Assembly (NCBI RefSeq): GCF_046105845.1
Contig: NZ_CP151004.1
Length of the DNA stretch: 64,000 bases
Origin: Escherichia coli
Lineage (GTDB): Bacteria; Pseudomonadota; Gammaproteobacteria; Enterobacterales; Enterobacteriaceae
Direction: 5' to 3' (one strand)
Part shown: piece by piece, positions 1 through 46,050 of the stretch
Numbering within the stretch: position 1 is the stretch's first letter
How the letters are laid out: the number at the start of each line of letters is the position of its first letter
Program-made: the position numbers and the translations under genes
Notes under the pieces: generated by a model
The model's input: the letters and a program-made list of their open reading frames with translations, nothing else
Told to the model about the DNA's origin: nothing
Database searches by the model: none

Positions 1-574
1 TTCTACCACCAACAACGTCGAACGCCAAAAACAGGCGGCTTTCTCTGACACTATTTTCGTGGTCGGTACGCGCCTGTTGACCAAAAAGGGTGGCGATATC
101 AAAGATTTCGCCGATCTGAAAGGCAAAGCCGTAGTCGTCACTTCCGGCACTACCTCTGAAGTTTTGCTCAACAAACTGAATGAAGAGCAAAAAATGAATA
201 TGCGAATTATCAGCGCCAAAGATCACGGTGACTCTTTCCGCACCCTGGAAAGCGGTCGTGCCGTTGCCTTTATGATGGATGATGCTCTGCTGGCTGGTGA
301 ACGTGCGAAAGCGAAGAAACCAGACAACTGGGAAATCGTCGGCAAGCCGCAGTCTCAGGAAGCCTACGGTTGTATGTTGCGTAAAGACGATCCGCAGTTC
401 AAAAAGCTGATGGATGACACTATCGCTCAGGTGCAGACCTCCGGTGAAGCGGAAAAATGGTTTGATAAATGGTTCAAAAATCCCATTCCGCCGAAAAACC
501 TGAACATGAATTTCGAACTGTCGGACGAAATGAAAGCACTGTTCAAAGAACCGAATGACAAAGCACTGAACTAA
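1..574 (+). CDS. gltI: Glutamate/aspartate ABC transporter periplasmic binding protein, C-terminal part (5' end lies outside window)
   Basis: Open frame from position 2 with no stop; translation ...DTIFVVGTRLLTKKGGDIKDFADLKGK... matches GltI C-terminus; followed by gltJKL. Confidence 0.9.
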   Translation, partial: STTNNVERQKQAAFSDTIFVVGTRLLTKKGGDIKDFADLKGKAVVVTSGTTSEVLLNKLNEEQKMNMRIISAKDHGDSFRTLESGRAVAFMMDDALLAGERAKAKKPDNWEIVGKPQSQEAYGCMLRKDDPQFKKLMDDTIAQVQTSGEAEKWFDKWFKNPIPPKNLNMNFELSDEMKALFKEPNDKALN

Positions 575-730
575 TTACAAGAACCAGGGGCGGAAATTCC
601 AGCCCTCTCGATTGTTACGTAGCACGGACAGACTATACGCCTGATGGTCGTTCCCCATCGGGCCTGAAAACCGCAATACGCTGGGTAACAATCTTCGAGG
701 GTAGCAGTTAACGCTGCTACCCTCTTTTTT
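570..730 (+). ncRNA. sroC: Probable SroC sRNA locus in the gltI-gltJ spacer (ends at intrinsic terminator)
   Basis: Established knowledge that SroC is processed from the gltI-gltJ intergenic part of the gltIJKL mRNA; 169-nt spacer ends in a strong hairpin plus T-tract; exact 5' end not determinable from sequence. Confidence 0.45.
697..730 (+). terminator. Intrinsic terminator/attenuator between gltI and gltJ
   Basis: GAGGGTAGCAG-ttaacg-CTGCTACCCTC stem followed by TTTTTT. Confidence 0.75.
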
Positions 731-743
731 CTGGAGTAGATTT

Positions 744-1484
744 ATGTCTATAGACTGGAACTGGGGTATTTTTTTACAACAAGCCCCGTTCGGCAACACC
801 ACCTATCTTGGTTGGATCTGGAGTGGTTTTCAGGTCACGATCGCTTTGTCGATCTGCGCCTGGATTATCGCTTTCCTCGTCGGTTCATTTTTCGGCATTT
901 TACGTACCGTTCCAAACCGTTTTCTCTCCGGTCTGGGTACGTTGTATGTCGAACTGTTCCGCAACGTGCCGTTGATTGTGCAATTCTTTACCTGGTATCT
1001 GGTGATCCCGGAGCTGCTGCCGGAGAAAATCGGCATGTGGTTTAAGGCCGAGCTGGATCCCAATATTCAGTTTTTCCTTTCATCCATGCTCTGCCTGGGG
1101 CTGTTTACCGCCGCCCGTGTTTGCGAACAGGTACGCGCCGCGATCCAGTCGCTGCCGCGTGGGCAGAAGAATGCCGCGCTGGCGATGGGTCTGACGCTGC
1201 CGCAGGCTTACCGCTATGTACTGTTGCCTAATGCTTATCGCGTTATCGTCCCGCCGATGACCTCCGAGATGATGAACCTGGTGAAAAACTCCGCCATCGC
1301 CTCGACCATCGGTCTGGTGGATATGGCGGCGCAGGCGGGTAAATTGCTCGACTACTCGGCCCACGCCTGGGAGTCGTTTACCGCCATCACGCTGGCGTAT
1401 GTGTTGATTAACGCGGTTATCATGCTGGTAATGACGCTGGTTGAACGTAAAGTTCGCCTGCCCGGCAACATGGGGGGCAAATAA
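744..1484 (+). CDS. gltJ: Glutamate/aspartate ABC transporter permease
   Basis: 246-aa ORF, polytopic membrane protein, second gene of gltIJKL order. Confidence 0.95.
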
Positions 1485-2158
1485 TGTACGAGTTTGACTG
1501 GAGTTCCATTGTCCCTTCCCTGCCATATCTGCTCGACGGGCTGGTGATCACCCTGAAAATCACCGTCACGGCAGTCGTGATTGGTATTTTGTGGGGCACC
1601 ATGCTGGCGGTGATGCGCTTGTCCAGCTTTGCGCCCGTAGCGTGGTTTGCCAAAGCCTACGTTAACGTATTCCGCTCGATTCCTTTAGTTATGGTTTTGC
1701 TGTGGTTTTACCTGATTGTGCCGGGTTTTCTGCAAAACGTGCTGGGATTATCGCCAAAAAATGATATCCGTTTAATTTCGGCGATGGTGGCGTTTTCGAT
1801 GTTTGAAGCGGCCTACTATTCAGAGATTATCCGCGCCGGTATTCAAAGTATTTCTCGTGGTCAGTCGAGCGCCGCGCTGGCGTTGGGGATGACTCACTGG
1901 CAGTCGATGAAACTGATTATTCTGCCGCAGGCGTTCCGCGCGATGGTGCCGCTGCTGCTCACTCAGGGCATCGTACTGTTCCAGGATACCTCACTGGTGT
2001 ATGTGTTATCTCTGGCCGATTTCTTCCGTACCGCCTCAACCATTGGTGAGCGTGATGGTACGCAGGTTGAGATGATCCTGTTTGCCGGATTTGTTTATTT
2101 CGTTATTAGCCTTAGCGCATCGTTGTTGGTCAGCTACTTGAAAAGAAGGACAGCATAA
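1484..2158 (+). CDS. gltK: Glutamate/aspartate ABC transporter permease
   Basis: 224-aa ORF, start overlaps gltJ stop (ATGA-type coupling). Confidence 0.95.
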
Positions 2159-2883
2159 TGATTACCCTGAAAAATGTTTCAAAATGGTATGGTCACTTTC
2201 AGGTGCTGACCGACTGCTCAACCGAAGTGAAAAAAGGCGAAGTGGTGGTGGTTTGCGGCCCGTCTGGTTCCGGCAAATCAACGCTGATTAAAACCGTCAA
2301 CGGCCTCGAACCGGTGCAGCAAGGTGAAATCACCGTCGATGGCATCGTGGTTAACGACAAGAAAACCGATCTGGCAAAGCTGCGTTCCCGCGTCGGGATG
2401 GTGTTCCAGCATTTCGAGTTGTTCCCCCATTTGTCGATTATTGAAAACCTGACCCTGGCGCAGGTGAAAGTGCTTAAACGCGATAAAGCACCCGCTCGTG
2501 AAAAAGCATTGAAATTGCTGGAGCGCGTCGGGCTTTCCGCACATGCCAATAAGTTTCCGGCGCAGCTTTCCGGCGGTCAGCAGCAGCGTGTGGCGATCGC
2601 TCGCGCATTGTGCATGGATCCTATCGCGATGCTGTTCGACGAACCGACATCGGCGCTGGATCCGGAGATGATCAACGAAGTGCTGGACGTGATGGTGGAA
2701 CTGGCGAACGAAGGAATGACCATGATGGTGGTGACCCACGAAATGGGCTTTGCCCGTAAAGTGGCGAATCGGGTGATCTTTATGGACGAGGGTAAAATTG
2801 TCGAAGACTCGCCGAAAGACGCTTTCTTCGATGATCCGAAATCGGACCGCGCAAAAGACTTCCTCGCGAAAATCCTGCATTAA
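2158..2883 (+). CDS. gltL: Glutamate/aspartate ABC transporter ATP-binding protein
   Basis: 241-aa ORF with Walker [13 protein letters not shown] signature LSGGQQQR, Walker [12 protein letters not shown]. Confidence 0.95.
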
Positions 2884-2890
2884 TCACTCT

Positions 2891-2930
2891 GGCGCGCATA
2901 CCCAATTGCGCGCCATCTCACGCTTTATCG
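2891..2930 (+). terminator. Candidate terminator hairpin downstream of gltL
   Basis: GGCGCGCA-tacccaat-TGCGCGCC stem; weak T-tract. Confidence 0.4.
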
Positions 2931-3000
2931 TTTCGCCCCTCGTATCTGTTACATCCTGGCGTTACCCTTGTCGCAAAGAAGCACACAACAAGGAGCAACA

Positions 3001-3936
3001 ATGGCACTGCCAATTCTGTTAGATTGCGACCCAGGTCATGACGACGCTATCGCAATAGTTCTCGCCCTCGCCTCACCAGAGCTTGATGTCAAAGCAATTA
3101 CGTCTTCCGCCGGAAACCAGACACCAGAAAAAACCTTACGCAATGTTCTGCGTATGCTGACCTTGCTTAATCGCACCGATATTCCGGTAGCAGGCGGCGC
3201 GGTAAAACCGTTAATGCGTGAGTTGATTATCGCGGACAATGTGCACGGCGAAAGCGGTCTCGACGGCCCGGCATTACCGGAACCGACGTTCGCACCGCAA
3301 AACTGTACGGCGGTAGAGCTGATGGCGAAAACACTACGTGAAAGTGCGGAACCTGTCACGATTGTTTCTACCGGACCGCAAACTAACGTTGCCTTGCTGC
3401 TCAATAGCCACCCGGAACTGCATAGCAAAATTGCCCGTATCGTGATTATGGGCGGTGCAATGGGGCTTGGTAACTGGACGCCTGCGGCTGAATTTAATAT
3501 TTACGTTGACCCGGAAGCGGCAGAAATTGTCTTCCAGTCAGGGATCCCGGTGGTGATGGCCGGTCTGGATGTTACTCACAAAGCACAAATTCACGTTGAG
3601 GACACCGAGCGTTTCCGCGCCATTGGCAACCCTGTTTCAACCATTGTTGCCGAACTGCTGGATTTCTTCCTCGAATATCATAAAGACGAAAAATGGGGCT
3701 TTGTCGGCGCACCGCTGCATGACCCATGCACCATCGCCTGGCTGTTAAAACCGGAGTTGTTTACCACTGTTGAGCGCTGGGTTGGCGTGGAAACACAAGG
3801 GAAATATACCCAGGGTATGACGGTTGTTGATTATTATTATCTGACCGGCAATAAACCGAATGCTACTGTAATGGTCGATGTTGATCGTCAGGGCTTTGTT
3901 GATTTACTGGCTGATCGTCTGAAATTTTACGCTTAA
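3001..3936 (+). CDS. rihA: Pyrimidine-specific ribonucleoside hydrolase RihA
   Basis: Translation from [15 protein letters not shown] (nucleoside hydrolase DxDxxxDD motif); AAGGAG RBS just upstream; longer ORF start at 2968 rejected. Confidence 0.9.
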
Positions 3937-3940
3937 TCAC

Positions 3941-3966
3941 TCGCCGGATGACATCACGCCATCCGG
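3941..3966. terminator. Palindromic hairpin in the 44-bp convergent rihA/ybeL junction (probable bidirectional terminator)
   Basis: GCCGGATG-acatcacgc-CATCCGGC perfect 8-bp inverted repeat. Confidence 0.5.
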
Positions 3967-3980
3967 CACCACTCATTTCA

Positions 3981-4463
3981 TTAAGGCTCGAACGGGCGTC
4001 TCTGGAACTGGTCATGACCACATTTCGGGCATAGCGTCAGCACTTCCGGTGTATAGATCGGGAGATGGAAATGACATTTCTCGCAGACCAGATTTCCCAG
4101 CCCTACCACTTCTCCGCTGTGATAAACCCCGTGATGATTGAGGTCCTGGAAAACTTCGCGCCATTCAAGCTGCGTTTTATCGGTGATGTCTGCCAGCTCC
4201 TGCCACAAGCTTTCTTTAATCACCCGCATAAAGACGCTGTCAGACTCTTCTTTCAGGCTCTCTTCATAGCTCATGGCGAACTCTTCCAGGTCACGTCTGA
4301 CAGCTCGCGTCAGCTCATCGACTTCGGTTCGCGTTAACTCCCCTGTTTTTATTACGCGCTCGCGCGCCTGTTCCACCAGTGCGTCGATATCACGTTCGCC
4401 ATTGCGCAGGCGTTCGCTCAGTGACGCGACCAGTTCACGGTAATATTGAGCAACCTTGTTCAT
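3981..4463 (-). CDS. ybeL: Uncharacterized DUF1451-type protein with C-terminal CxxC...CxxC zinc-ribbon
   Basis: 160-aa ORF MNKVAQYYRELVASLSERL...; CEKCH...CPKCGH motif. Confidence 0.85.
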   Translation of the reverse strand: MNKVAQYYRELVASLSERLRNGERDIDALVEQARERVIKTGELTRTEVDELTRAVRRDLEEFAMSYEESLKEESDSVFMRVIKESLWQELADITDKTQLEWREVFQDLNHHGVYHSGEVVGLGNLVCEKCHFHLPIYTPEVLTLCPKCGHDQFQRRPFEP

Positions 4464-22931: not shown

Positions 22932-23519
22932 TTGTGACCATAAAACATTTATCAAAAATCTACTACTAGCATAGCAAAGCTACAATTAACATAACCTTAA
23001 TAGCCCCAACATAAAGAATAATCTGAATAGCTGCTCTATTTATTTCCGCTTGTTTAAGTTAAATATTTCCGCGCATCGATTAAAGATGATGCGTCGTTTT
23101 CTGCGATGGGAATAGTCAAAAAAGAAAAACCAAGTCTTTTTTGATGACAAAATGCAACCAAGAAAAAATTACTTTATTTTTAATAAGATACAAAAAATTC
23201 CTTAACGAAAAATATATTATATATCGTCAACCCATGATCATGGTAGATTATTTTTTGAGCGCACACCCGCGGCTAACACCATTGCAATTAACAAATTTGC
23301 ATCAATCCACCATCAATTTACACACATTATTATGTGATAATTGCCAACCGCTAAATATGCGTTTTGTTATCTATGTATAAAAACAGCAACTTCAATGTCT
23401 TAATGGCAGTTTTTCTTGATTTTAATCAGCATTCACCGCCAATTTATTGGGCATATTTTTTTCCTTAAGCTTTAGGAATTTTTTATTATTTACTTTGGGG
23501 CCTGGAGACAGGAAAAATT

Positions 23520-24905
23520 ATGCTGACATTCATTGAACTCCTTATTGGGGTTGTGGTTATTGTGGGTGTAGCTCGCTACATCATTAAAGGGTATTCCGCC
23601 ACTGGCGTGTTATTTGTCGGTGGCCTGTTATTGCTGATTATCAGTGCCATTATGGGGCACAAAGTGTTACCGTCCAGCCAGGCTTCAACAGGCTACAGCG
23701 CCACGGATATCGTTGAATACGTTAAAATATTGCTAATGAGCCGCGGCGGCGACCTCGGCATGATGATTATGATGCTGTGTGGCTTTGCCGCTTACATGAC
23801 CCATATCGGCGCGAATGATATGGTGGTCAAGCTGGCGTCAAAACCATTGCAGTATATTAACTCCCCTTACCTGCTGATGATTGCCGCCTATTTTGTCGCC
23901 TGTCTGATGTCTCTGGCCGTCTCTTCCGCGACCGGTCTGGGTGTTTTGCTGATGGCAACCCTGTTTCCGGTGATGGTAAACGTTGGTATCAGCCGTGGTG
24001 CAGCTGCTGCTATTTGTGCCTCCCCGGCGGCGATTATTCTCGCACCGACTTCAGGGGATGTGGTGCTGGCGGCGCAGGCTTCCGAAATGTCGCTGATTGA
24101 CTTCGCCTTCAAAACGACGCTGCCTATCTCAATTGCTGCAATTATCGGCATGGCGATCGCCCACTTCTTCTGGCAACGTTATCTGGATAAAAAAGAGCAC
24201 ATCTCTCATGAAATGTTAGATGTCAGTGAAATCACCACCACTGCTCCTGCGTTTTATGCCATTTTGCCGTTCACGCCGATCATCGGAGTGCTGATTTTTG
24301 ACGGCAAATGGGGTCCGCAATTACACATCATCACTATTCTGGTGATTTGTATGCTGATTGCCTCCATTCTGGAGTTCATCCGCAGCTTTAATACCCAGAA
24401 AGTTTTCTCTGGTCTGGAAGTGGCTTATCGCGGGATGGCAGATGCGTTTGCTAACGTGGTGATGCTGCTGGTTGCCGCTGGGGTATTCGCTCAGGGGCTT
24501 AGCACCATCGGCTTTATTCAAAGTCTGATTTCTATCGCCACCTCGTTTGGTTCGGCGAGTATCATCCTGATGCTGGTATTAGTGATCCTGACAATGCTGG
24601 CGGCAGTCACGACCGGTTCAGGCAATGCGCCGTTTTATGCGTTTGTTGAAATGATCCCGAAACTGGCGCACTCTTCCGGCATTAACCCGGCGTATTTGAC
24701 TATCCCAATGCTGCAGGCGTCAAACCTCGGTCGTACCCTGTCACCCGTTTCTGGCGTAGTCGTTGCGGTTGCCGGGATGGCGAAAATCTCACCATTTGAA
24801 GTCGTAAAACGCACCTCGGTGCCGGTGCTTGTTGGTTTGGTGATTGTTATCGTTGCTACAGAGCTGATGGTGCCAGGAACGGCAGCCGCGGTCACAGGCA
24901 AGTAA
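23520..24905 (+). CDS. dcuC: Anaerobic C4-dicarboxylate transporter DcuC
   Basis: 461-aa polytopic membrane protein, intact. Confidence 0.95.
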   Translation: MLTFIELLIGVVVIVGVARYIIKGYSATGVLFVGGLLLLIISAIMGHKVLPSSQASTGYSATDIVEYVKILLMSRGGDLGMMIMMLCGFAAYMTHIGANDMVVKLASKPLQYINSPYLLMIAAYFVACLMSLAVSSATGLGVLLMATLFPVMVNVGISRGAAAAICASPAAIILAPTSGDVVLAAQASEMSLIDFAFKTTLPISIAAIIGMAIAHFFWQRYLDKKEHISHEMLDVSEITTTAPAFYAILPFTPIIGVLIFDGKWGPQLHIITILVICMLIASILEFIRSFNTQKVFSGLEVAYRGMADAFANVVMLLVAAGVFAQGLSTIGFIQSLISIATSFGSASIILMLVLVILTMLAAVTTGSGNAPFYAFVEMIPKLAHSSGINPAYLTIPMLQASNLGRTLSPVSGVVVAVAGMAKISPFEVVKRTSVPVLVGLVIVIVATELMVPGTAAAVTGK

Positions 24906-35991: not shown

Positions 35992-36074
35992 GCTCAAATA
36001 TCAACCAGATTTATCATTTTGCTCTTAAGCGCAGCATTCTAATCTGAACTGGTTATTCATCTGCGGAACCTCAT

Positions 36075-36164
36075 ATGAGCGAAGCTCTCGGTATCACTGC
36101 ATTTTATATATTCATAGCCGCAATTATTGTTGCTGCAGTGCTATACCTTGAACAACGCTGGTAG
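36075..36164 (+). CDS. Hypothetical 29-aa single-TM hydrophobic peptide (MSEALGITAFYIFIAAIIVAAVLYLEQRW), unannotated candidate
   Basis: ATG-initiated ORF verified codon by codon; one predicted TM helix; no strong SD, so coding status is uncertain. Confidence 0.25.
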   Translation: MSEALGITAFYIFIAAIIVAAVLYLEQRW

Positions 36165-36287
36165 CGCCTGGTTTTATTTATTTTCCAGCTCAATAGCAAA
36201 TTCAGATCAAATCAGCCTCGCAAATCATAGATTCATAACCAATAATGTGCTGTTATGTATACATGCAAAAACAAGGAGAGAATGCTT

Positions 36288-36716
36288 ATGTACAAAACAA
36301 TCATCATGCCAGTTGATGTATTTGAAATGGAATTGAGCGACAAAGCGGTTCGCCACGCTGAATTCCTCGCCCAGGATGACGGAGTTATTCATCTACTTCA
36401 CGTACTACCGGGGTCAGCCAGCCTGAGCCTGCACCGTTTTGCCGCTGATGTACGTCGTTTTGAAGAGCATCTGCAACATGAAGCAGAAGAACGTTTGCAA
36501 ACGATGGTCAGCCACTTCACCATCGATCCTTCCCGCATTAAACAACATGTCCGTTTTGGTAGCGTGCGGGATGAAGTTAACGAGTTAGCGAAAGAACTTG
36601 ATGCAGATGTAGTAGTGATTGGTTCGCGTAACCCATCAATTTCAACTCATCTGTTGGGTTCTAACGCCTCGAGCGTGATCCGCCACGCCAATTTGCCGGT
36701 GCTGGTTGTGCGTTAA
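36288..36716 (+). CDS. uspG: Universal stress protein G
   Basis: 142 aa from [22 protein letters not shown] 8 nt upstream. Confidence 0.9.
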
Positions 36717-40254: not shown

Positions 40255-40463
40255 AAGGTAATTCATGGATGGTTGAACTATATCCCTGCTTTTCAACCAT
40301 CCTAAAAAAGCATGAATTGCTCGCTCTGCCCTAAGTGGCTGTGCTATTTTAGTAAAACTTAATCCTGAGTTAAGCAAAAAAAAATAATCAATAAAAATAT
40401 ATACGCAAAAAAACATTGATTAAGTGAATATATCATGGAAGAAAAATATAACCGGAGTAGTGT

Positions 40464-41366
40464 ATGGCCAATCTCTACGACTTGAAAAAGTTCGACTTAA
40501 ATCTTCTTGTCATATTTGAGTGTATTTATCAGCATTTAAGCATTAGCAAGGCTGCTGAATCACTATATATCACCCCGTCAGCCGTGAGCCAGTCGTTACA
40601 ACGCTTACGTGCGCAATTTAATGACCCTTTATTCATTCGCTCAGGAAAAGGTATCGCGCCGACGACGACAGGGTTAAATCTGCATCACCATCTTGAGAAA
40701 AATCTCAGAGGCCTTGAACAAACAATTAATATAGTCAATAAGTCCGAACTAAAGAAAAACTTTATTATCTACGGTCCTCAGCTCATTTCTTGCTCTAATA
40801 ATAGTATGCTGATCCGCTGCCTACGGCAAGATGCCTCTGTCGAGATTGAGTGCCATGATATCCTCATGTCAGCAGAGAATGCTGAAGAACTGTTGGTTCA
40901 CCGCAAAGCCGATCTGGTGATCACCCAAATGCCAGTGATCAGCCGTTCCGTCATTTGCATGCCATTGCATACAATTCGCAATACTCTAATTTGTAGTATT
41001 AAGCATCCGCGAATTACTGACAATAGCACTTATGAACAAATTATGGCAGAAGAGTTCACCCAATTAATATCCAAATCAGCAGGAGTTGATGATATTCAAA
41101 TGGAAATAGACGAGAAGTTTATGAATCGCAAAATTTCATTTCGTGGTTCCTCTTTGCTGACAATCATTAATAGCATTGCAGTTACAGATTTACTGGGAAT
41201 AGTCCCCTATGAACTTTATAACTCCCACCGTGACTTTCTTAATTTAAAAGAGATAAAACTAGAACATCCGTTACCTTCAATAAAGCTTTACATTTCCTAT
41301 AATAAATCTTCTTTAAACAATCTGGTGTTCTCACGATTTATTGACCGTCTAAATGAGTGTTTTTGA
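40464..41366 (+). CDS. ybdO: LysR-family transcriptional regulator, uncharacterized
   Basis: 300 aa, N-terminal HTH (LYITPSAVSQSLQRLR); AT-rich gene. Confidence 0.85.
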   Translation: MANLYDLKKFDLNLLVIFECIYQHLSISKAAESLYITPSAVSQSLQRLRAQFNDPLFIRSGKGIAPTTTGLNLHHHLEKNLRGLEQTINIVNKSELKKNFIIYGPQLISCSNNSMLIRCLRQDASVEIECHDILMSAENAEELLVHRKADLVITQMPVISRSVICMPLHTIRNTLICSIKHPRITDNSTYEQIMAEEFTQLISKSAGVDDIQMEIDEKFMNRKISFRGSSLLTIINSIAVTDLLGIVPYELYNSHRDFLNLKEIKLEHPLPSIKLYISYNKSSLNNLVFSRFIDRLNECF

Positions 41367-41512
41367 TATATAACTTCAGACAGCTACTATAACTTTCACC
41401 TATTTATTCACAGCGCGAATGAAAAATAAAACACTCTGCTTTTCAGTGTTTACTTTATAATTAACAGTCTTATCTCACTGATCACCCTGTAACGTTCAGA
41501 GAGCGTCTTCAG

Positions 41513-42733
41513 ATGTCTATTTATAAAATTCCTCTTCCGCTCAATATTCTGGAAGCTGCAAAAGAACGTATTACCTGGACACTTAACACCCTACCCCGCG
41601 TTTGTGTCTCATTTTCTGGCGGCAAAGACTCTGGTTTAATGCTGCATCTGACAGCCGAACTTGCTCGACAAATGGGCAAAAAAATCTGTGTTTTGTTTAT
41701 CGACTGGGAGGCGCAATTCTCTTGCACCATTAACTATGTTCAGTCCCTGCGCGAGTTGTACACCGATGTGATCGAAGAGTTTTACTGGGTTGCGCTCCCG
41801 CTTACGACGCAAAATTCCCTTTCACAATACCAACCCGAATGGCAGTGCTGGGAACCTGATGTCGAATGGGTACGTCAGCCCCCGCAAGATGCGATAACCG
41901 ATCCTGACTTTTTCTCCTTTTACCAGCCTGGCATGACCTTCGAACAATTTGTGCGTGAGTTTGCCGAATGGTTTTCGCAAAAACGCCCGGCGGCGATGAT
42001 GATCGGCATCCGTGCGGATGAGTCCTACAACCGTTTTGTCGCCATCGCCAGTTTAAATAAACAACGTTTTGCCGACGATAAACCCTGGACTACGGCCGCA
42101 CCAGGCGGGCATAGCTGGTACATTTACCCCATTTACGACTGGAAAGTGGCTGATATCTGGACCTGGTATGCAAATCATCAAAGTCTCTGCAACCCACTGT
42201 ATAACCTAATGTATCAGGCAGGCGTTCCTCTGCGTCATATGCGAATTTGCGAACCTTTTGGCCCGGAGCAACGACAAGGATTATGGCTCTATCACGTTAT
42301 CGAACCGGATCGCTGGGCTGCTATGTGCGCACGAGTCAGCGGGGTAAAAAGTGGCGGCATTTACGCCGGACATGACAATCATTTTTATGGTCATCGGAAA
42401 ATCCTCAAGCCCGAACATTTAGACTGGCAGGAGTATGCATTATTGCTACTCAACAGCATGCCGGAGAAAACAGCTGAGCATTATCGCAATAAAATCGCCA
42501 TTTATTTGCACTGGTATCAGAAAAAAGGCATCGAGGTTCCACAAACCCAGCAAGGGGACATTGGCGCGAAAGATATCCCCTCCTGGCGGCGAATATGCAA
42601 AGTTTTACTCAATAACGATTACTGGTGTCGGGCATTATCATTTAGCCCGACCAAAGCGAAGAACTATCAGCGTTATAACGAACGAATAAAAGGAAAACGT
42701 CAGGAATGGGGGATACTATGCAACAACGATTAA
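41513..42733 (+). CDS. ybdN: PP-loop ATPase / PAPS-reductase-like protein (IbrA-like), uncharacterized
   Basis: 406 aa; PP-loop SFSGGKDS motif visible in translation. Confidence 0.85.
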   Translation: MSIYKIPLPLNILEAAKERITWTLNTLPRVCVSFSGGKDSGLMLHLTAELARQMGKKICVLFIDWEAQFSCTINYVQSLRELYTDVIEEFYWVALPLTTQNSLSQYQPEWQCWEPDVEWVRQPPQDAITDPDFFSFYQPGMTFEQFVREFAEWFSQKRPAAMMIGIRADESYNRFVAIASLNKQRFADDKPWTTAAPGGHSWYIYPIYDWKVADIWTWYANHQSLCNPLYNLMYQAGVPLRHMRICEPFGPEQRQGLWLYHVIEPDRWAAMCARVSGVKSGGIYAGHDNHFYGHRKILKPEHLDWQEYALLLLNSMPEKTAEHYRNKIAIYLHWYQKKGIEVPQTQQGDIGAKDIPSWRRICKVLLNNDYWCRALSFSPTKAKNYQRYNERIKGKRQEWGILCNND

Positions 42734-45702: not shown

Positions 45703-45900
45703 TTAGCAGCAGCGCGCGCCGCCTTTTCCACCGTAGCGCGCGTCCTGCCGCTCACGGAAAAACTCCTCGTAGGTCATCGGCGTTTGATCGGGATGGTTAA
45801 CCCGCATATGTTCGACATAGTTGTCGTAATCAGGCATACCAATCATCAGCTTCGCCGCCTGACCTAAATATTTTCCGGCTTTTGCCAGTGAATCAAACAT
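45703..45900 (-). CDS. ybdD: Small DUF466 protein downstream of cstA
   Basis: 65 aa from [19 protein letters not shown]...; conserved pairing with cstA. Confidence 0.85.
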
Positions 45901-45959
45901 CAATACCTCCGGTAAACAGGTTGCTGATAGAGTGCATTAATAGCTATCAACGCGCTCGG

Positions 45960-46050
45960 TCAGTCCCCTCGCCCCACAGGAGAGAGGGTTAGGGTGAGGG
46001 GGAACCCTCGGCACCATGCCAACATTCGCCAACATCCCCCCTCACTCTGA
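45960..46050. repeat. GC-rich repeat element in the ybdD-cstA spacer
   Basis: Three copies of a CCCCTC(A/G)CC(CC) motif in direct and inverted orientation (45965-45975, 46001-46012 inverted, 46036-46047). Confidence 0.4.

Follow-up and report, generated by a model that had tools for sequence, protein, structure and literature searches.

Does the longest non-coding stretch in a 64,000-nt window of an Escherichia coli chromosome (the whole stretch of DNA analyzed here) conceal a gene, or is it a long control region and nothing else? The stretch lies between the divergently oriented genes pagP and dcuC, with cspE and crcB beyond pagP and dpiA/dpiB beyond dcuC, in a chromosome that is 99.9% identical to that of strain A10 over 1.7 kb. 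An initial annotation, made from the sequence alone, had described it as an unusually long, AT-rich pagP/dcuC control region with room for an unannotated small RNA or small ORF. The region is in fact the already-studied dcuC/pagP (crcA) control region of strain K-12, the regulators of which have been published, and it represents no new kind of element; what its length consists of is the subject of this report.

Size, composition and distribution of the spacer

When gene boundaries are taken from the annotation of strain A10 (99.9% identical), the pagP/dcuC spacer is the longest among the 49 intergenic regions of the window; the median length is 109 bp, and the two that follow it in rank measure 378 bp and 371 bp. 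Its GC content is among the three or four lowest of the 28 intergenic regions of at least 100 bp, and A/T tracts occur at 23117-23130 and 23173-23201. Coordinates and GC content thus confirm the longest non-coding stretch, AT-rich and placed between divergent pagP and dcuC, that the initial annotation had described, and the A/T tracts and 79-aa ORF (23141-23380) that it quoted were found in place. In K-12 MG1655 the gap has the identical length of 588 bp (655,969-656,556 of NC_000913.3) and carries no annotated feature. Of 5426 complete E. coli genomes, 5375 contain the spacer (≥80% coverage), and no annotated feature lies under the match in any E. coli record among the matches listed.

A scan for PagP yielded 80 enterobacterial loci, in 45 of which dcuC is located divergently upstream of pagP. 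The intervening DNA varies in length. In Escherichia it measures 558-588 bp, and elsewhere 281-307 bp (Klebsiella/Raoultella), 403 bp (Salmonella enterica arizonae), 411-465 bp (most Citrobacter) or about 437 bp (several Enterobacter), being AT-rich in each of these groups; a few Enterobacter, Kosakonia, Silvania and Huaxiibacter have spacers of 660-1024 bp with higher GC, in which a search for ORFs revealed nothing consistent. The great length of the spacer is real but lineage-specific.

In an alignment of 46 enterobacterial spacer sequences, which defines all conservation columns given below, cross-species conservation is restricted to two modules at the ends of the spacer (Table 1). Mean pairwise divergence within E. 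coli, computed among four strains (the window strain, K-12, CFT073 and O157), is 0.035 in the pagP module, 0.018 in the dcuC module and 0.150 in the center, compared with 0.039 at third codon positions.

Table 1. Features of the pagP/dcuC region, in window coordinates
Feature	Position	Strand	Remarks
pagP CDS	22371-22931	-	
pagP/dcuC divergent intergenic control region	22932-23519		588 bp, GC 0.31
pagP promoter module	about 22960-23030		PhoP-box-like repeat, extended -10, RcsB-like box; cross-species conservation
Predicted pagP extended -10, TGcTATGCT (pagP strand)	22968-22976	-	conserved columns and sigma70 peak
PhoP-box-like direct repeat TATTAAGGTTATGTTAA	22986-23002	-	overlaps pagP -35 position
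RcsB-box-like element AAAGAATAATCTGA	23013-23026		about 60 bp upstream of predicted pagP TSS
AT-rich central filler	23031-23281		unconserved, H-NS-covered; hotspot 23132-23281
Hairpin	23071-23094	+	terminator-like, non-conserved
Perfect 10-bp inverted repeat	23116-23144		non-conserved
'Constitutive promoter' hexamers proposed for dcuC/pagP (Shimada et al., gSELEX)	23144-23172; 23177-23205	+; -	back to back
dcuC upstream segment conserved within Escherichia	23282-23415		low divergence; candidate factor-binding DNA
FNR site TTGATTTTAATCAG	23416-23429		one mismatch (9/10 match) to TTGAT-N4-ATCAA
Predicted dcuC -10 hexamer CATATT	23452-23457	+	conserved TTTATTnGGCAnATT block
dcuC Shine-Dalgarno region GACAGGA	23507-23513	+	columns 80-90% conserved, directly 5' of ATG
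dcuC CDS	23520-24905	+	

The pagP promoter module

Conserved columns on the pagP side outline an extended -10 element whose TG and hexamer TA are common to about 90% of the 46 sequences, and an anaerobic sigma70 ChIP-seq peak at 655742 (Myers et al. 2013) maps to window position 22969. This arrangement would place the pagP transcription start site (TSS) at about 22961 and leave a 5'UTR of about 30 nt. The best PhoP-repeat candidate on the pagP strand, TATTAAGGTTATGTTAA, precedes the extended -10 by 9 nt; it has 3 mismatches in 12 positions to KGTTTA-N5-KGTTTA, a quality of match that is common in the window, while its columns TTAAG and TT.A are about 90% conserved. A PhoP site has been reported 32 bp from the crcA (pagP) TSS. 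The same DNA (22986-23001) contains a GTTAA-N6-GTTAA (ArcA-type) repeat with one mismatch, a candidate for the published ArcA matrix match, which was reported for dcuC/crcA as a position-weight-matrix site without a ChIP peak.

Upstream of these elements lies AAAGAATAATCTGA, the AATC core of which is 80-90% conserved among the 46 sequences. It differs at one position from what we take to be the RcsB core, and a putative RcsB box is the assignment that we favor. With regard to SlyA, whose consensus we presume to be TTAGCAAGCTAA, the spacer contains no ungapped match at three or fewer mismatches. A near-palindrome seen by eye, TAGCAAAGCTA at 22972-22982, overlaps the -10 and has a spacer one base longer than the SlyA consensus. 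RcsB-dependent induction of pagP has been published, and pagP is SlyA-dependent in biofilm. Scans of the spacer for the H-NS 10-mer and for IHF, CRP and ArcA half-sites returned weak matches only, which are not interpretable.

The dcuC promoter module

The FNR site TTGATTTTAATCAG is the only match to the FNR box in the spacer at two or fewer mismatches. The 20-bp block that spans it (TTTcTTGATTTTAATCAGCA, 23412-23431) is almost invariant in the 46 sequences, and is followed in the alignment by the TTTATTnGGCAnATT block and then by the Shine-Dalgarno sequence. Published coordinates (U00096.2) were transferred to the window via the K-12 alignment, the mapping being checked on the sequence of this site: the FNR site predicted by Myers et al. 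2013 (CTGATTAAAATCAA at 655,281) corresponds to 23416-23429 and is identical, and their FNR ChIP-seq peak at dcuC/pagP (655,298), a locus with an FNR ChIP-chip peak as well, corresponds to 23412. The same study lists dcuC as directly activated by FNR. Anaerobic induction of dcuC is about 20-fold. The spacer contains an FNR-type site and a candidate PhoP-type site, both conserved across species, in agreement with the initial reading of it as a divergent pagP/dcuC control region.

Since the FNR site is centered at 23422.5, a -41.5 architecture would put the -10 at CATATT and transcription initiation near 23464, giving a predicted 5'UTR of about 56 nt; the dcuC promoter would then be of the class II FNR-activated type. 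An anaerobic sigma70 ChIP-seq peak at 655,235 (Myers et al. 2013) maps to 23476, 12 bp from the predicted TSS. The entry for dcuC in the published table reads 'TSS not in peak region' (Myers et al. 2013), so the dcuC TSS annotated at that time lay elsewhere; a further promoter of dcuC may lie upstream and give rise to a long leader.

Conservation on this side extends well beyond the core promoter within the genus. The whole segment 23282-23519 has a pairwise divergence under the third-codon level, and bins at 23310-23435 are 67-81% identical to other Escherichia species, versus 31-60% in the center. The portion 5' of the FNR site (23282-23415, about 130 bp) includes ATTAACAAATTTGCATCAAT (23286-23305), which is partly conserved in Citrobacter, and an inverted repeat, GCAATTA...TAATTGC (23284-23296 / 23332-23344). 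This Escherichia-conserved DNA probably binds further factors.

H-NS coverage and RNA polymerase occupancy

With a GC content of 0.30-0.34 along its length versus 0.518 for the window, the spacer is as AT-rich as expected of an H-NS-silenced region. Recurrent IS5 insertion under selection is typical of H-NS-silenced control regions. In this spacer, IS5 insertions recur under kanamycin selection. Two H-NS ChIP-chip regions (654,590-655,558 and 655,584-656,283; Myers et al. 2013) jointly cover the whole spacer and run on into both pagP and dcuC, gSELEX flags H-NS in the spacer, and pagP is derepressed 18-fold in a delta-hns strain.

Exactly two anaerobic sigma70 ChIP-seq peaks fall within the spacer, at 22969 and 23476, and none is located in its center in K-12 (Myers et al. 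2013). The initial annotation had named a lack of start sites or binding peaks beyond those of the two known promoters as what would speak against it, and this is what sigma70 ChIP-seq shows, at least in anaerobic, glucose-grown cells. A simple sigma70 promoter scan of the spacer returned 0 matches against 3.7 expected in shuffled sequences, and a designation as a 'promoter island' was rejected by this criterion; both true promoters are non-consensus, as expected of activator-dependent promoters. In vitro, RNAP sigma70, RpoN/NtrC and other holoenzymes bind in or near the spacer in gSELEX. The published RpoN/NtrC peak maps to 22951, near which no sigma54 motif is found, the only match being one with 3 mismatches at 23385-23400 (minus strand), and we treat this peak as unexplained or non-specific.

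Does the spacer hide a gene?

In favor of an encoded small protein, the 79-aa ORF on the plus strand, starting with TTG, is uninterrupted in the window strain; similar 'hypothetical proteins' have also been called in a few E. coli/Shigella annotations. The frame is however truncated at codons 8-22 in 7 of 8 E. coli strains, its alignment includes 5 indel columns, and stops occur in all frames in E. whittamii and E. sp. E1V33. Its 47 variable sites are distributed 11/18/18 by codon position (p=0.35), versus 4/4/23 in pagP and 0/0/17 in dcuC, and no purine-rich Shine-Dalgarno sequence precedes the TTG. A search of 5.8 billion proteins returned 25 sporadic 'hypothetical protein' calls of 46-90 aa, which contain no Pfam domain, are inconsistent in length and come from E. 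coli/Shigella only; moreover, the ORF lies upstream of the predicted dcuC TSS. Truncations, indels and the lack of a third-position excess agree with the earlier opinion that this ORF is non-coding, and the broken frame and absent codon-position bias run against the room for a small ORF that had been suggested alongside it. The small-protein reading of the 79-aa ORF is effectively refuted, and that the spacer encodes any small protein, be it this ORF or one of the 25-36-aa ORFs, is scarcely credible.

Another candidate is an sRNA transcribed in the direction of pagP, or else a long leader with a regulatory role in pagP expression. For Shigella flexneri 2a 301, Wang et al. 2016 list an sRNA of about 295 nt, Ssr31, between pagP and dcuC on the pagP strand, from a promoter-plus-terminator prediction with RT-PCR scored 'Yes', and in the gSELEX work a pair of hexamers directed toward pagP was proposed some 240 nt 5' of its ATG. 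The RT-PCR was, however, not shown to be strand-specific and does not distinguish an sRNA from read-through, and every line of sequence evidence from the spacer itself is negative. An Rfam scan of 21900-24000 at permissive E-values detected nothing beyond the known thermoregulator of the cspA type in the leader of cspE; the spacer has no match at E<1, its best one (E=1.8, 23.7 bits) falling far short of the gathering score. Folding z-scores, computed for 48 windows on both strands, reached at best -2.2, none of them notable. The terminator scan found one plus-strand hairpin (23071-23094) and none on the pagP strand; in CFT073, W224N and O157, substitutions with no compensating change disrupt both this hairpin and the inverted repeat at 23116-23144, the terminator-like structure being lost in B2 and O157 strains. 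The candidate region is also the least conserved DNA of the locus, at or above neutral divergence, and each of the two sigma70 ChIP peaks is located at a proximal promoter. The supplements of Kim 2012 and Adams 2021 contain no entry for pagP or dcuC, and the absence of 3' ends so labeled from the Term-seq supplements examined is a weak negative. Rfam, folding, terminators, conservation and sigma70 peaks all speak against the unannotated sRNA for which the length of the spacer had seemed to leave room; Ssr31 is a weak lead, and an sRNA or long leader encoded here is improbable. A hidden gene in the spacer is not supported.

The central block

The DNA between the two modules (about 23031-23281) is not alignable outside Escherichia; compared in 42-bp bins with E. 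whittamii and E. sp. E1V33, it shows an identity of only 31-64%. Its divergence is concentrated in 23132-23281, where the mean of 0.150 is about 4x the value of 0.039 at 19,288 third-codon positions of the 64 kb; when 2324 sliding windows of 150 bp are ranked, this stretch belongs to the top 1% and is the sole intergenic hotspot, the other diversity hotspots being located close to 45.9 kb and in citR and its surroundings. Between K-12 and O157, divergence amounts to 17.4% in the central block, versus 0.7% at flanking third positions. The window strain is a mosaic that resembles K-12 as far as about 23150 and then CFT073 until about 23235, and 29 of 325 informative site pairs show all four gametes. 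Its haplotype is rare, with 68 of 5379 genomes at least 95% identical over 23031-23290. The hexamers proposed by Shimada et al. fall within this block and are degraded in the window strain, to AATTAC and TTAAGG.

We read the central block as unconstrained, mutation-prone, recombining filler. Simple lack of constraint falls short of fully explaining a divergence about 4x that of third codon positions, and a more elaborate reading has to be weighed, namely that about 23130-23280 is a functional polymorphic regulatory element whose recombined haplotypes set H-NS nucleation or cryptic-promoter strength. Everything that makes the block exceptional can be cited in its favor: the excess divergence and its status as the one intergenic hotspot, the nearly identical flanks of K-12 and O157, the mosaicism and failed four-gamete test, the scarcity of the window haplotype, and the fact that the proposed -10 and -35 hexamers vary by haplotype. 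Against it, DNA rich in A/T homopolymers is prone to mutation and indels, similar hotspots elsewhere in the window (citR and its flanks) indicate that deep local genealogies are not unusual, the K-12 center lacks a sigma70 peak, and the analysis covers only 4-8 strains. We consider such an element unlikely, and equally so that its haplotypes tune pagP/dcuC between lineages through regulatory-allele exchange or balancing selection; the same low expectation applies to 23132-23281 as a set of recombining old regulatory haplotypes or as the origin of an H-NS-silenced transcript, Ssr31 for instance, that is made only under certain conditions. Less probable again is that the Escherichia-specific extra DNA derives from a gene or mobile element that once entered the space between pagP and dcuC and has since decayed. 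Other genera have 120-300 bp less DNA here, the higher-GC spacers of 660-1024 bp in a few genera show that the site accepts insertions, and IS5 has inserted into the spacer in the laboratory; yet even at the sensitivity of blastn the block occurs only once per E. coli genome, it has no terminal repeats and shows no IS, REP or ERIC-like signature, and at the protein level it matches nothing but its own ORF calls. We very much doubt such an origin.

A probable composite, H-NS-embedded control region

The reading that we prefer, and hold with considerable confidence, is that the spacer is a composite divergent control region embedded in H-NS and made up of three parts. The pagP module, about 100 bp, would comprise the PhoP-type repeat at -35, the extended -10, a leader of about 30 nt and the RcsB-like box. 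H-NS would keep pagP off until an anti-silencer acts, with PhoP (low Mg2+), RcsB (osmotic/envelope stress), SlyA or EvgA overcoming H-NS at this proximal module. The dcuC module, about 240 bp, would consist of a class II FNR promoter with a weak CATATT -10 and a leader of about 56 nt, together with the Escherichia-conserved DNA 5' of the FNR site, FNR at the class II position turning dcuC on anaerobically. Between the two, the central filler of about 250 bp appears to be gene-free DNA with no detectable constraint that expanded in Escherichia; it probably serves to keep both promoters in one H-NS-bound tract, and may extend and stabilize the tract and separate the promoters from each other. 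That the filler is of use as a platform for H-NS, and not just DNA that selection tolerates, is our inference.

The value of this analysis is mainly that of a clean negative, as the longest non-coding stretch of the window shows no sign of hiding a gene. It also provides an example of a long enterobacterial spacer composed of two short, conserved, activator-dependent promoters with labile H-NS-bound DNA between them. Were the unlikely regulatory role of the central block to prove true, lineages of E. coli would differ in how the block tunes lipid A palmitoylation, the anaerobic transport of C4-dicarboxylates, or both; and if its diversity were selected, the locus would be a small case of regulatory-allele exchange affecting outer-membrane remodeling (pagP), with a possible, speculative relevance to antimicrobial-peptide and aminoglycoside tolerance.

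Comparison with known systems

The closest counterpart is the dcuC/pagP (crcA) region of K-12, which is alike in locus, 588-bp length and flanking genes, is 95.8% identical, and has the same FNR site and PhoP-type repeat as the window strain. The two spacers show 25 differences, 22 of them clustered in 23158-23271, and among the differences is an indel of a single nucleotide, owing to which the 79-aa frame is open in the window strain only. With Ssr31 of Shigella flexneri, which lies on the pagP strand, the window shares the spacer and the orientation of the genes, but no conserved terminator, structure or sequence that would support Ssr31 was found; Ssr31 itself is a prediction with RT-PCR scored 'Yes', lacking a Northern blot, 5' RACE or a function.

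In common with class II FNR promoters (dmsA and the narG core), where the site is located near -41.5, dcuC has the FNR box, an in vivo FNR peak, activation by FNR and a predicted weak -10 at the place that -41.5 spacing would require; it differs in that the published table places the then-annotated TSS outside the peak region. On the other side of the spacer, the pagP region resembles H-NS-silenced, anti-silencer-activated envelope genes, among them those of the Salmonella pagC/ugtL type and E. coli pagP as characterized earlier (Chalabaev et al. 2014; Szczesny et al. 2018). The resemblance covers AT-rich upstream DNA, H-NS coverage, derepression in delta-hns, activation by SlyA, PhoP and RcsB, and IS5 insertions. 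Two differences set it apart from the pagC/ugtL type: FNR still occupies its site inside the H-NS tract, with no nucleoid-protein masking reported there, and pagP is an ancestral enterobacterial gene with conserved synteny rather than a recent horizontal acquisition.

Sequence diversity and conservation in the pagP/dcuC spacer

Within the AT-rich intergenic region separating pagP from dcuC, sequence diversity among four E. coli strains (the window strain, K-12, CFT073 and O157) is concentrated in a central block (23132-23281), where mean pairwise divergence reaches 0.150; the window-wide value for third codon positions is 0.039. K-12 and O157 differ at 17.4% of positions in this block, against 0.7% at flanking third positions. 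The haplotypes in this block form a mosaic that does not pass the four-gamete test; candidate causes of the hotspot include mutation-prone A/T tracts, a deep recombining genealogy, or selection.

Directly adjoining this block, the ∼130 bp upstream of the FNR site (23282-23415) are conserved within Escherichia and partially in Citrobacter. This segment contains the conserved sequence ATTAACA...GCATCAAT, as well as an inverted repeat (GCAATTA...TAATTGC); a search for its regulator yielded none that could be assigned.

In some Citrobacter, Enterobacter, Huaxiibacter, Silvania and Kosakonia, the dcuC/pagP spacer extends to 660-1024 bp, with a higher GC content of 0.40-0.47 (compared loci L011, L025, L032, L035, L041, L052, L058, L059 and L061). 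These long spacers harbor no consistent ORFs, and several lineages have therefore gained additional DNA here by insertion.

The pagP side of the spacer and PagP divergence

Published in vitro gSELEX peaks for both RpoN holoenzyme and NtrC lie at K-12 position 655,760 (U00096.2), corresponding to window position 22951, which places them ∼20 bp upstream of the pagP ATG; no sigma54 -24/-12 motif was found near 22951. Judging from amino acid identities, PagP (22371-22931) is evolving much more quickly than its neighbor DcuC (23520-24905): identity to E. whittamii is 88% for PagP and 98% for DcuC, and to Salmonella arizonae 74% and 93%, respectively.

Features mapped in the window
Feature	Position	Strand	Remarks
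ybeM, C-N hydrolase (deaminated glutathione amidase)	20669-21457	-	intact in window strain
cspA thermoregulator family, RF01766	21939-22297	-	Rfam, 123 bits, E=1.6e-32
Inverted repeat GCAATTA...TAATTGC	23284-23296 / 23332-23344		within 23282-23415
yldA-uspG gap without ybdR	∼36070-36290		

The strong Rfam match to RF01766 spans the cspE leader and coding region.

Variation elsewhere in the window

The top divergence hotspots of the 64-kb window among the same four strains are 40300-41600, comprising citR and both flanking intergenic regions, and ∼45876-46050, at 0.13-0.18 per 150 bp. High divergence at citR and in the intergenic regions on either side (0.121 and 0.099) suggests that citR exists as divergent alleles swapped through recombination.

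Gene content also varies. ybeM is likewise intact in A10 (the 99.9%-identical strain from which annotation was taken), CFT073 and O157; the K-12 MG1655 annotation lists it as a pseudogene. The zinc-dependent alcohol dehydrogenase gene ybdR is present between yldA and uspG in K-12 and O157, and missing there from the window strain, A10 and CFT073. In CFT073 the ybeQ-ybeR-djlB-ybeT block is absent beside ybeL, where gltI...rihA adjoin instead (window 1-4000 compared with locus L093), and ybeF is truncated and frameshifted; gene content at the window's left end thus varies across E. coli.
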